Below, piece after piece: positions 34,975 to 39,268 of a stretch of 64,000 nt of DNA. The notes beneath the pieces are model-generated. The model had not been told where the DNA came from, searched no databases, and saw only the letters and a list, made by a program, of their open reading frames with translations. How positions within the stretch are numbered: position 1 is the first letter of the stretch; each line of letters opens with the position of its first letter. Both the position numbers and the translations under genes were made by a program. Source of the DNA: a virus (lineage: Duplodnaviria; Heunggongvirae; Uroviricota; Caudoviricetes); IMG/VR virus record IMGVR_UViG_3300042892_003817; one strand, given 5' to 3'.

Positions 34975-37131
34975 TTATTTTTTTAATTCTTTAATTTCTT
35001 TTTGCAATTCTTTTATAGCTTCAATTAATAAAGGTATAATTTTATCATATTGAACAGCTTTCATTCCACTTTCTCTAGTTTGAACTGCTTCTGGTATTAC
35101 TAGTTCAATTTCTTGAGCAATAACTCCAACATCATGTCCTTTATTACCATGGAATGGTTCATCTTCTATCCAATCAAATTCAACTCCACTAATTTGAGAT
35201 ATTTTTTCTAATGGAGAATCTATTTTTACAATATTATTTTTCCATCTTTTATCTGAAGTAGAATAAGCTACTATATCATTTGAGGCTTCAAATCTACCGG
35301 CAGTATTGGTAGGTGTTATACCTAATCCCATAGCGCCACCAGCAGTAATCCAAACTCTATTTTGATCGTTTGTTCTAAGTATTAACGGAAAGTTCTGATA
35401 GTTACCAAAAAATGAATATTGTCCTGCTACATTCCAGCCAAGTATAGTATCATTTTTAAAAGTAGCTCCCTCAAGCATACGAAATGTTGTATTATATGAT
35501 GTAACTGATGCATTATTATTTACTGAGAATTGCCCTAATGTATTATCAGTATTATTTACAGATACTTTTCCGTTGTCATGAATTGCCATTCTAGCAGTTC
35601 CAGCTGTTGAGAATCCTAATACATCTGCTGATATGTTATACATACCTGTATTGGTATCTCCTGTGAATGTGAATGTTGGCTCTCCTGCATAACCGTTCCC
35701 AGCTCGAACTTTTTCATATACTTCCAACTGAAATAATCTAGATGTACTTGCTGGATCTACATAATATGATGTGGTGCCAGTCTCGTAGAATATTGGTGCA
35801 GTGATTTGAGTTGTTGCTGCTAAAGTAGTTGCGTTTAATGTACCTGTGCTAGATTGAATAGTAACTGCTGCTGCAGAATACGCCTGAGTAGTTGTAGATC
35901 CAGCTCCCCATAAAACTGGGTATGCTGTTCCATCTGTTCTGTTAGGTGAGTATGCAATTACACCTGCAGTAGTAGCTGTACCTGCATTTCCTGTTATATT
36001 AATACCCCAGTTACCTGATGCTCCTGTTCCTGTTAGAGTCGGTGCGTATGAGTTATAGTTAGCACTGTTTAAGTAATATACCCAAGATCCAAAAGAACCT
36101 CCGGTTATATTTCTTGTTGCTAATTTATTTGCGTTATCCTCCCAACCCCATGCTACTTGTGTTCCCCAATAGTTTGACGCATTACTATGTCTCATATTTT
36201 GGTAGAACCACCAAGTATTTCCTGGACTGTTAGTTAAACTAGCTTGATCTCCTTGGTACCTAAAAGTATTTGCTGGTGTATTGTTAAAGTCTGTGTTTAA
36301 GTTTCCTGAGCTTCCTGCACTTAGAGCTGGTGCACTGAATTGTGTTCCAAATAATGTAGTTCCATCAAATGTTAAATTAGATGATCCTGCTGCAACGTTT
36401 GAACTATTTTTGTATACTACTTGGTTTGCTGATCCTGCTGCTGGCCCTGTTGCACCGGTTACCCCTACTGTTCCAGTAGCTCCACTTACACCTATTACCC
36501 CAGTTGCCCCAGATACCCCGACTACTCCTGTTGCTCCACTTACACCTATTACTCCAGTAGCTCCACTTACACCTACTACTCCGGTTGCACCACTTACTCC
36601 TATTACGCCTGTTGCTCCAGATACTCCTATTACGCCTGTTGCTCCAGATACTCCTATTACTCCAGTAGCTCCGCTTACTCCAATTGGTCCGGTTGCTCCT
36701 GTTACACCTATCGGTCCTGTAGCTCCGCTTACTCCGATTACTCCTGTTGCTCCTGTTACTGTTGGTGTTTGTGCAAAAGTCGCATAAGAAGCTGTACCGA
36801 ATAATGAACCTGTTATGAAGGCTCGTGATCCTGATACTCTAATAGCTTCTGCTCCGTACTGTCCTATGTTTACTCTATTATCGGCAAAAGCTTCTATTAC
36901 TGGAAGTCCTGCTATAGTATTTACTGAGAATAAAGAATCAGATAAGTCGTCAGATACTGTAAATAATCTTCCGTTAGTTCCGTTTACTGCCAATAAGTCT
37001 GTTCTTCCGGTAGAACCTGAACCTTGTAAGATTAATGATCCTGAGGCATCTTGAGTTAATGTTTCTTTAAAGTTCAAAGAACTTGTAAAGGACATTACAC
37101 TGGATGCTGGTGTTATTCTAATATCTGCCAT
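34975..37131 (-). CDS. Collagen-like tail fibre with C-terminal peptidase S74 intramolecular chaperone
   Basis: About 104-aa Gly-X-Y block; SDKRWKNNI...G.IAQE....PEAV...[13 protein letters not shown]. Confidence 0.9.
36442..36753 (-). repeat. Collagen-like tandem repeat, mostly 27-bp units (GATGVIGVS)
   Basis: Directly visible imperfect tandem repeats. Confidence 0.95.
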
Positions 37132-37132
37132 A

Positions 37133-37474
37133 CTATTGTGTTAATTCTGCTAATGGTTTTGACCACTCCTCTGTTGATAATATAGTAAGAATTTCTTCAT
37201 GAGTGTACTCTGTATCTCCTTCTTGGTAGATACTCGGTCTTCCGTACACCCCTGCAAGAGTTGTATGACTTGTTTCTTCCTGTGTTTCAGGATTAATACC
37301 GGTATGTACTATATCCTCTAGTATTTCATTTATTTCATACTTAATAAAAGTCTTAGTACCATCTACCGATAGTCTTAAACTCTCTGGTGATGATTCTAAT
37401 ATCTGATTGAAATCAATCGATCCTGTTGCTGTGGTTGGTATTATTAACCATCTTCTATTCTCAAATGTACTCAT
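37133..37474 (-). CDS. Hypothetical tail-region protein
   Basis: 113-aa ORF (..SL..S.DGTKT..KY...Y.HEEIL..L...EW); no homing-endonuclease motif. Confidence 0.75.
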
Positions 37475-37504
37475 ATTCTTTGAATATTAATTTAAAACTA
37501 TTAC

Positions 37505-37775
37505 GGGTTTCCCCTAAGTGTTTATCCTATGCAACGAGCACACACTTTTGTTAACTATGTATTTCTACACAGGTCGGACTATATCATCATGCTTTATAAG
37601 CATGTTGGGCGCTCTAGCTGGTTATTAAGGAAACTTTATTCCTCCAGTAGTCTCTGAACCTTCTTGAGATGTATCTCAAGCTTGGCTGCTGATTTTCCAA
37701 TCTTTAACATTGTTACACTTCGGTAGTTAAAGCTCTAAGGACGTTCCAGCAATTCACCCAATTTAAACAGGACAT
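37505..37775 (-). ncRNA. Free-standing group I intron-type ribozyme core (IA-like, with P7.1)
   Basis: P AAUUGCUGGAA (37744-37754), Q AAUCAGCAGC (37685-37694), R GUUCAGAGACUA (37648-37659), S UGAUAUAGUCC (37576-37586); P3, P4, P6, P7, P7.1, P8, P9 all pair. Confidence 0.9.
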
Positions 37776-37798
37776 ATATAAATAGCACTAAAAATTAT

Positions 37799-39268
37799 CT
37801 AAGACACATAAGGTGCTACTATTGTTTTATAAAACTCTTCTCCGTATGTTGATGTTCCTCCATTTGGAAATTCAAAACGAAGTGGACCACCTCTTTTACC
37901 TTTATATACAGTAACTGATGTAAACCATTTTCCATTCTTATAAGAAGTCTGTACTCCATATTCAGTAAGCCTAGTAGGTGTTCCAATATCGTCTCTAGCT
38001 ACTTCTATGTAATTGTCTGGGGATTGAAAACTTGCATCTGGTTTTTGGTATATAGTATAGGCTGGTGTTGTGGTAGCCATGTTTTCGCCACTTATATCTC
38101 CTTCTGTTCCGTCTGCTTCCCACCTTCTATTATACCTAGTAGCTCTATTACTTACTGCAAAGTAATACGTATCATACTCTATTCCAAATCTTGCATTATA
38201 GAAATCAAAATTCTGTTTTACTTCTGCTGCCGTTAGTGCTCTGTTGTATATTTTTGCTACTGGTATTTCTCCTCCTTGGAAATATGACCAACTCCTACCT
38301 ACTTGTATGTTAGTAGTTCCTATAAAAGATGCAATATTACTTGATCCTTGAAGTACTCCGTTTTTATAAATAAAAGCAGTTGTTCCATCATATACCCACA
38401 GTACGTGTACCATTTCGTTTAACGCAACTGATCCTGCAGCGTAATCAGCACTATAATGAGCGAAGTATATGTTCCCATTCCTAAGACCATTATGCATTCC
38501 TTGACGATATGCAGTTTGATCAGTTCCAAAAACCATATTATCCCCACTTATTGTATTAGTTACTTTAAATACGGCTTCCATTGTATATGGAGCATCATAA
38601 ATACCTAAAGCAGTAGCTGTCTTAGTAGTATTTATGTAATCATCGGTACCATCAAATACCATTTGAGCATTTGAATTAAAAGATACATTTGATAAATCTA
38701 ATGTACTGTTTCCTACTAATGGTAAAAGTCCTTGTGTTGCTGAACGAGTACCTGCTACGAATGGTGTTGTGTAAGATTTTAATTCTACTTGAGGATCATA
38801 TAGAGTAACAGCTCCACCAGTATCGAAATTTATATCTAAGAAGTAGTAAGGTGCAGCGTAAGAACCTCTACTACTATACCCTGCTAACCTCCCTGATGTT
38901 GCTGTGGAATAGTTGAGGCCTGTAATACCTACATCACACCAATCAATTGATAACCCTCCTATTAGGTTTTCAAAATACACACTACTGTTATATGTCGCTC
39001 CATCTATTAAATCAGGTTGGTTTGGATACAACCTAACGGTGCTCACTCCTGTACCATTATTTACAAATCTAAATTTACCATTTCCTAAATCTGTTTTGGT
39101 ACATCTTCCGTAGATATCTCCTCCGCCGTTTATAAGGTTTGTAGCTCCAGCGCTGTATAGTAGGTTTACTGTAGGTTGTCCTATATACGAATTTCTAGTA
39201 TCTCCTGTATCGTAAGCAAACACCGATCCTGATGTGACTGTTTTTCCGTATCCTTGTGCTACTGCCAT
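37799..39268 (-). CDS. LamG/concanavalin-A-like lectin domain tail protein (paralogue 2)
   Basis: FDGTDDYI...YTMEAVFK...H...VYDG....IY.NG...IYNRALT..EV.QNF. Confidence 0.85.
   Translation of the reverse strand: MAVAQGYGKTVTSGSVFAYDTGDTRNSYIGQPTVNLLYSAGATNLINGGGDIYGRCTKTDLGNGKFRFVNNGTGVSTVRLYPNQPDLIDGATYNSSVYFENLIGGLSIDWCDVGITGLNYSTATSGRLAGYSSRGSYAAPYYFLDINFDTGGAVTLYDPQVELKSYTTPFVAGTRSATQGLLPLVGNSTLDLSNVSFNSNAQMVFDGTDDYINTTKTATALGIYDAPYTMEAVFKVTNTISGDNMVFGTDQTAYRQGMHNGLRNGNIYFAHYSADYAAGSVALNEMVHVLWVYDGTTAFIYKNGVLQGSSNIASFIGTTNIQVGRSWSYFQGGEIPVAKIYNRALTAAEVKQNFDFYNARFGIEYDTYYFAVSNRATRYNRRWEADGTEGDISGENMATTTPAYTIYQKPDASFQSPDNYIEVARDDIGTPTRLTEYGVQTSYKNGKWFTSVTVYKGKRGGPLRFEFPNGGTSTYGEEFYKTIVAPYVS
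38646..38691. repeat. 46-bp exact direct repeat, copy A (copy B 39778-39823)
   Basis: gtaccatcaaataccatttgagcatttgaattaaaagatacatttg. Confidence 0.9.

Follow-up and report, generated by a model that had tools for sequence, protein, structure and literature searches.

Group I introns are textbook selfish elements, and their ribozyme is thought to matter only for the removal of the intron. What, then, does a group I ribozyme do between two genes, where there is nothing to splice? The locus that raises this question lies in a stretch of 64,000 nucleotides (the window) from a 126-kb phage record in IMG/VR, a distant relative of Flavobacterium phage immuto. Megablast of the ribozyme locus against GenBank phages gave no match. 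A first-pass annotation had proposed that the only good P1 partner of the ribozyme is located downstream of its core, that the pairing has 5'-splice-site geometry with a G-U wobble, and that there is no matching upstream exon. The sequence comparisons reported here support this interpretation. We consider it probable, at roughly 0.6, that the element is a natural self-targeting (P1-loop-permuted) group I ribozyme, derived from a canonical IA-type phage intron by opening of the P1 loop.

The ribozyme is intergenic, with a LamG-type adhesin gene on its upstream side and a conserved 113-aa gene on its downstream side (Table 1). The 489-aa upstream ORF contains a Laminin_G_3 lectin domain (Pfam PF13385, residues 206–351), and its stop codon is separated from the guide sequence by 25 nt. 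The 113-aa gene has its own ATG at 37474, 49 nt past the predicted cut, with an in-frame TAA 12 nt upstream of it. This gene is complete, 18 homologues aligning from residues 1–4, and the window contains no downstream exon that would continue any reading frame. Neither the 113-aa gene nor most of the neighbors of the related elements described below fall into a PHROG or Pfam family; the gene after the 113-aa ORF encodes a collagen-like tail fibre. Scanning 37000–38200 for sigma-70 promoters and terminators returned nothing near the ribozyme, and the GGGG-AAA-CCC hairpin was not scored as a terminator. This hairpin had been thought to protect a new 5' end of the downstream mRNA. It is indeed present in the window, but among the relatives it is kept only in L010-A, the closest one.

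Table 1 Coordinates of the features discussed in the text. Positions refer to the window unless a contig is named; the arrow marks the predicted cut.
Feature	Position	Strand	Remark
Upstream gene, 489 aa	37799..39268	-	ORF list
Domain X	window 37802-38176 (-); L040:692-1096; L010:3727-4395; L173:746-1531 (-)
Internal guide sequence U-GUCCUGU	37767..37774	-	G37773 wobble with U37524; U37774 pairs with A37523
Group I catalytic core	37555..37766	-	Rfam RF00028 and RNAalifold
P3	37761-55/37611-05	-
P4	37751-46/37692-87	-
P5 and P5a	within core 37555..37766	-
P6 and P6a	37686-37658	-
P7	37652-48/37581-77	-
P7.1/7.2	37647-37618	-
P8	37604-37588	-
P9	37572-37555	-
Invariant UAACA (37553-37549), then putative omega-G	37543..37553	-	Homology with canonical introns
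Closing helix, 5' strand AAGUGU	37542..37547	-	Contains putative omega-G; MFE fold
Inner hairpin GUGC-UCGUU-GCAU	37529..37541	-	Between omega-G and target
P1 target AUAGGAU↓A	37523..37530	-	Predicted guanosine attack between U37524 and A37523
Closing helix, 3' strand ACACUU	37516..37521	-	Starts 2 nt past predicted cut
GGGG-AAA-CCC hairpin	37505..37514	-	9 nt past predicted new 5' end
Downstream gene, 113 aa	37133..37474	-	Homologue of immuto gp223
Paralogous ribozymes of L010	L010:871-1160 and L010:4408-4660
Immuto member	L002:5920-6190 (MW353175, about 145,040-145,310)

RF00028 is the sole Rfam family matched in the window, and the match on the minus strand (37803–37555) is full-length (model positions 1–253) and scores 89.8 bits against a gathering score of 50. 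RNAalifold analysis with 13 relatives assigned 54 pairs to P3–P9, of which 23 show compensatory changes. The segment UGAUGAUAUAGUCCGA is invariant in the family alignment of the core, and throughout the core, J8/7 and P7 included, the bases are either invariant or compensated across the family. Every base from the guide motif GUCC onward is conserved or compensated in this alignment, and the sequence further upstream is unalignable; the conserved RNA thus begins exactly at the guide sequence. Together with the 23 compensatory pairs, this conservation from GUCC onward indicates that the ribozyme is under selection. By its predicted fold, the element belongs to the group I ribozyme family, yet it interrupts no gene and has no upstream 5' exon.

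The guide segment UGUCCUGU (37774–37767) lies directly 5' of J/P3, five bases before P3, and forms eight antiparallel pairs with AUAGGAUA (37530–37523). Two of these are G-U pairs, one of them being U37524-G37773. Taken by itself, the match between guide and target in the window is weak. Partners of 7 bp for the guide occur 1.3 times per kb on the minus strand of the window, the chance of finding such a partner within the 74-nt tail is ~9%, and the local fold is no better than that of shuffled sequences (z = −0.59). The case therefore has to be made from the relatives.

Protein-anchored and pattern searches of IMG/VR and metagenomes yielded a family of 24 distinct elements sharing the same core. 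Beyond these, a diverged copy in the cultured phage immuto and an element in contig L209 were recognized as further relatives. Scans of metagenome and genome contigs with J8/7-P7 words contributed only L173, L178 and L209 and were too broad, as the word is common to many group I introns. The immuto copy scores 76.9 bits, and its Rfam hit was missed by a larger search with default filters; in the immuto record, a "hypothetical protein" CDS (immuto26A_226) is annotated over the ribozyme. All elements are intergenic and the arrangement is found in at least five genomic contexts, with the upstream ORF ending 9–81 nt before the guide and the downstream ORFs, in tail or structural gene clusters, starting 24–115 nt past the target. 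An 8-kb contig, L010, carries two paralogous ribozymes of types A and B, 3.5 kb apart, both of which begin with the guide. Their guides are GUCCUGU and GUCCAGA, and each target fits its own guide.

For each member, a 6-nt partner was predicted from its own guide, consisting of the complement of guide position 5, GGAU, and the complement of the base 5' of the guide G. None of the 24 members has this partner within 300 nt upstream, while 23 of them have exactly one copy in the tail; in the next 300 nt of coding sequence it was found in 2/24. The tetranucleotide GGAU itself is present in each of the 24 tails (47–139 nt, roughly 88 nt), nearly always once. Both the downstream position of the only P1 partner and the lack of a matching upstream exon thus hold for the family. 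The first-pass annotation had also suggested that guide and target be compared in homologues, and the two pairs flanking GGAU/GUCC covary. Across the predicted cut (guide position −1 with target position +1), A-U, U-A, C-G and G-C all occur, and 14 of 15 distinct combinations pair, a value reached by 2.7e-5 of guide shuffles. On the 5' side of GGAU (guide position 5 with target position −5), all 15 distinct combinations pair as U-A, A-U or G-C, which was reached by 0 of 300,000 guide shuffles. These shuffles among members ignore relatedness, yet three pair types occur within the context of the MSIVLR gene alone.

The GGAU/GUCC core is invariant, and its U-G wobble, represented in the window by U37524-G37773 as the annotation had it, is kept in 26/26 members. 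Guide positions 6 and 7 pair no better than chance, and the conserved P1 is therefore a helix of 6 bp with an internal U-G wobble and not one of 8 bp. Of the eight pairs originally described, all are present in the window, but only six are conserved in the family. A predicted 6-bp helix with an internal wobble corresponds to the classic P1 geometry, and its U strand here lies 3' of the core.

Among the hits of the pattern searches were also canonical introns that share the guide motif (L102, L110, L134, L135, L164 and others). In these sister introns, GUCCNNN pairs 7/7 with NNNGGAU located 7–59 nt upstream to give an ordinary P1 hairpin, and the 3' splice site is a G 4–6 nt past a conserved UAACA. 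Open frames are restored once the base following GGAU is joined to the one following that G, and the spliced-frame junction CYI..GY(T/S)LD↓CR..STGG is conserved in three contigs. As the sister introns pair and splice with the same guide, the helix of the element is very likely to be a genuine P1, with GGAU↓ as a genuine splice site. The canonical introns (with P7.1/P7.2, of the T4 td/nrdB type) have RF00028, the core helices, GUCCNNN, the GGAU↓ wobble and UAACA-N-G in common with the element. They differ in that their P1 exon strand is upstream, P10 is visible (UGUAGAA/UUCUAUA in L102) and splicing restores a protein frame, whereas the element has its P1 strand downstream of the putative omega-G, shows no conserved sequence upstream of its guide, interrupts no gene and carries a new helix. 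In a tree of the cores, the elements that begin with the guide form one clade (98/95) nested among the canonical introns, with three nested exceptions (L209, L042 and L066). The nested position indicates that the layout is derived and that a P1 loop was opened. L209 (minus strand) has both a 6-bp upstream candidate, UUGGAU (GGUUGGAU↓), 25 nt before the guide and three codons before a stop, and a downstream CGGAU target 40 nt after P9 with a closing helix; in its layout, L209 may be intermediate between canonical and permuted elements.

The pentanucleotide UAACA is unchanged in the 24 members, and all of them have a G at +4 to +6 after it, as do the spliced sister introns. By this homology, omega-G of the window would be G37545 (+4) or G37543 (+6), which are 21 and 19 nt before the predicted cut, respectively. 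One of the 3' ends considered earlier, AAAAG(UG), agrees with this homologous 3' end of the canonical introns. The predicted order is thus guide sequence, catalytic core, omega-G, short "exon" and 5'-splice-site strand on one RNA, which is the permuted or self-targeting order. The insert between omega-G and target measures 19–21 nt in the window and 41–79 nt in most relatives, and its sequence is not conserved among them. The first-pass annotation had suspected that the exon may be too short to circularise.

The target had been described as lying in a 20-nt stretch closed by AAGUGU/ACACUU and followed by a hairpin and the next ATG, and it was found exactly so. A closing helix is located at the same place in 24/24 members, where the bases right after UAACA pair with bases 0–6 nt past the predicted cut. 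It has 5–8 bp, or 4 bp in two type B copies, and its forms compensate one another (GUAAUG/CAUUAC, AAUGGUG/UACCAUU, AAGUGA/UCACUU, UUGG/CCAA and others). The helix was found by a local search; a naive search for the longest helix was noisy. It encloses a variable hairpin of 13–80 nt and displays the target in an internal loop, and the target is partly sequestered in local hairpins. The 3' strand of the inner hairpin of the window overlaps the two outermost, non-conserved P1 pairs; L010-A keeps this hairpin with a U-A to C-G change, and the other relatives have a variable hairpin of 40–80 nt in its place. Nothing equivalent to the closing helix is found in the canonical relatives. The putative omega-G is also a paired base of the closing helix, which may act as an ordering lock on it. 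The helix would bring the two splice sites next to each other, as homology arms do in engineered circularising constructs. As for P10, the bases after G37545 or G37543, or their equivalents in the relatives, pair inconsistently with the 5' flank of the guide, and the candidate UGUGUG/UAUAUA of the window is missing in L010-A and L040.

The upstream side of the locus bears on whether an exon has been overlooked. The C-terminal 125 residues of the 489-aa ORF (residues 365–489) constitute a beta-rich extension that we call domain X. The homologue of the LamG ORF in L011 ends at residue 364 of the window ORF, and in ribozyme-less relatives only 13 nt separate the end of the LamG gene from the 113-aa gene. 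Compared with these relatives, the extra block of the window consists of domain X, the ribozyme and the tail. Domain X matches a stand-alone 135-aa ORF before the ribozyme in L040 (47% identity, E 2e-31) and the C-terminus of the ORF upstream of the L010-B ribozyme (E 3e-5); a protein-atlas look-up of the domain gave nothing informative. The motif FYxTIVxP(Y/F/W)V-stop occurs in the window, L010, L040 and L173, which have different downstream genes, and the ORF upstream in L209 shares only the FPNGGT part of the domain. Types A and B without exception have domain X immediately in front of the ribozyme, as part of a LamG adhesin or as an ORF of its own. Since domain X is kept before the ribozyme and the downstream genes differ, the ribozyme travels with the upstream gene, and the two look like one movable cassette in host-recognition genes.

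Such a cassette would also be expected of an ordinary self-splicing intron with its 5' exon far upstream, so that domain X would sit within an enlarged P1 loop, or with its exon in trans. Intron ORFs are commonly fused in frame to the upstream exon, domain X and ribozyme look like a single insertion relative to L011, and the upstream candidate of L209 would fit as well. We nevertheless regard this explanation as very unlikely, given that neither the window nor L040 has a complementary site at the boundary of domain X and that the 300 nt upstream of the 24 members contain no partner. The matches further upstream, at 38437 and 38884, agree with the 1.3 per kb expected by chance, and both fall within the conserved LamG domain. 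In addition, the sequence upstream of GUCC is not conserved and no downstream exon continues any frame.

Another origin of the layout would be decay. Several uncultured phages (L103, L124, L127 and L129) carry arrays of canonical group I introns with cores 100–300 nt apart, and a deletion between two neighboring introns of such an array is one way in which the permuted layout could have arisen. On this basis the element might be a decaying intron remnant in a spacer, its downstream match being a coincidence or a leftover of the splice site of a second, deleted intron. The tandem arrays with their short exons and the ~9% chance of the window match agree with such a history. Compensatory changes, which affect 23 pairs of the core as well as the closing helix and the two P1 flanks and span at least five genomic contexts, speak strongly against it; they argue for continuing selection on the exact arrangement, and we give the remnant hardly any credence.

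For the self-targeting ribozyme, which we prefer, both chemical steps and the biological role can be proposed as follows. The adhesin gene, the ribozyme and the 113-aa gene would be transcribed together. GUCCU and U37774 would pair with AGGAU↓A, which would be displayed in the internal loop between the small hairpin and the closing helix. Free guanosine or GTP bound in P7 would attack after U37524 and sever the transcript, such that the upstream mRNA would end in a compact ribozyme and the downstream mRNA would start with an added G at A37523. The closing helix would hold omega-G paired until the downstream piece leaves. The 3' hydroxyl of U37524 may then attack after omega-G and yield a ring of 19–21 nt, or 41–79 nt in most relatives, and closure of the ring would make the cut irreversible. 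The proposed role of the element is a self-contained processing of the late polycistronic message. What the family would share as an output is a severed transcript whose upstream mRNA ends in a compact ribozyme. A strong terminator directly follows the target in L173 and in immuto, and a new 5' end of the next mRNA is therefore not a universal role. Likewise, the lack of conservation among the insert sequences argues against a sequence-specific function of the ring. The second step may not occur at all, because omega-G is assigned by homology and is paired in the ground state and no P10 is visible. The missing P10 would be no obstacle, as an engineered Tetrahymena construct consisting of ribozyme, insert and target U circularises by P1 alone and does not need P10 (PMC10457212).

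Conversely, the pairing might be real and no reaction follow from it. The downstream target would then be a decoy in cis or a structural lock, and the ribozyme would serve as a stable 3'-UTR structure of the upstream gene or, after displacement of the decoy, as a trans-cutter of other RNAs containing NGGAU. Several features would suit this role, including the constant position of types A and B after domain X in front of differing downstream genes, the terminators right after the target in L173 and immuto, the partial sequestration of the target in local hairpins and the pairing of omega-G. Against this, the U-G wobble is the hallmark of a cleavable 5' splice site and is retained by 26/26 members, although a G-C pair would lock better. 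The whole catalytic core, with J8/7 and P7, is invariant or compensated, and there would be no reason to keep UAACA and the G at +4 to +6 if no reaction took place. We thus judge a purely structural or trans-acting role to be improbable.

More tentatively, an aquatic phage clade that includes immuto may have turned an intron into a back-splicing device, in which a cut by GTP would sever the late polycistronic mRNA and leave a triphosphate 5' end on the next message, the closing helix would serve as a lock that frees omega-G only once the first step is over, and the segment of 19–80 nt would be closed into a circle. We hold this possible but would not expect it. If true, the device would represent for group I what circularly permuted introns are for group II. 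Contigs from four metatranscriptomes, marine and freshwater, are 85–99% identical to the ribozyme core; relatives are thus represented in RNA libraries, with DNA carry-over possible. The contigs of the four runs show neither joints nor common ends between 37350 and 37950; a ring of 19–21 nt would escape such libraries. Some metatranscriptome contigs of relatives bridge 37524/37523, which as contigs may again reflect DNA carry-over.

The closest known design is artificial. The STS/PIE circularising ribozymes (Lee et al. 2023, PMC10457212) have the same order of guide and ribozyme, insert and target uridine. They are laboratory constructs on the Tetrahymena intron with kilobase inserts, whereas the present element is natural and of IA type, and has inserts of 19–80 nt, a downstream mRNA and a helix that sequesters omega-G. 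Among natural systems, the mushroom-coral mitochondrial intron ND5-717, as summarized in PMC8637638 (citing Chi et al. 2019, PMC6545197), is a group I intron that back-splices from a permuted exon order and gives a circular product. It is a giant intron of an organelle and its splicing restores a coding gene, in contrast to a small intergenic phage element with no coding exon. Bacterial circularly permuted group II introns stand alone, interrupt no ORF and form small RNA circles (Roth et al. 2021, PMC8637638). They belong to another ribozyme class with branching chemistry and are chromosomal, whereas our element lies in a phage late operon.

The c-di-GMP-dependent allosteric group I ribozyme of Clostridioides difficile is a domesticated ribozyme located in non-coding mRNA, and it sets downstream expression through the choice of the GTP attack site (reviewed in PMC3984707). 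In that system a riboswitch aptamer lies upstream and the 5' splice site is in its normal upstream position, unlike in the element, whose sole splice-site strand is downstream. A riboswitch-ribozyme of the c-di-GMP-II kind, in which a ligand aptamer directly upstream governs the choice of splice site, was rejected for the window, where the Rfam scan detected no riboswitch family and the 25 nt that precede the guide lack conservation across the family. The GIR1 or lariat-capping ribozyme, mentioned in PMC8637638, is derived from group I and lies upstream of an mRNA whose 5' end it creates. GIR1 has lost P1 and the guanosine chemistry and forms a 3-nt lariat, whereas the element keeps P1, the U-G wobble and a G-binding P7. 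An assignment to GIR1, which branches at an internal processing site and is located in a twin-ribozyme intron ahead of a homing-endonuclease gene, was dismissed, RF00028 being the sole Rfam match, P1 and guide being present and no endonuclease gene being nearby. An IStron, in which the 3' end of a group I intron is fused to an IS transposase gene, was dismissed as well; no ORF is found within or directly after the ribozyme, and the next gene encodes the conserved 113-aa phage protein. A literature search of incomplete coverage brought up no description of such a layout for natural group I ribozymes of phages or bacteria.

At a site that offers nothing to splice, this ribozyme has been conserved through compensatory changes, and its substrate helix has been rewired to a downstream site, a design that RNA engineers reached independently in STS/PIE. 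If active, it would represent a natural, protein-independent module for RNA processing or circularisation in phage late operons, and would place a group I case, from bacterial viruses and not organelles, beside the natural permuted group II ribozymes. A further question would then be what purpose GTP-dependent cutting between structural genes serves in a phage. Because one copy is found in a cultured phage, immuto, the element can be tested directly.

A further feature was observed in the canonical sister introns. L102, L103, L110, L134 and others possess an extra hairpin between P9 and UAACA, and its conserved loop GGAUAAAGAGCC includes the GGAU also found at the splice site. A 7-mer in this hairpin is identical, in L103, L124 and L129, to the end of their own 5' exon (AGUGGAU).
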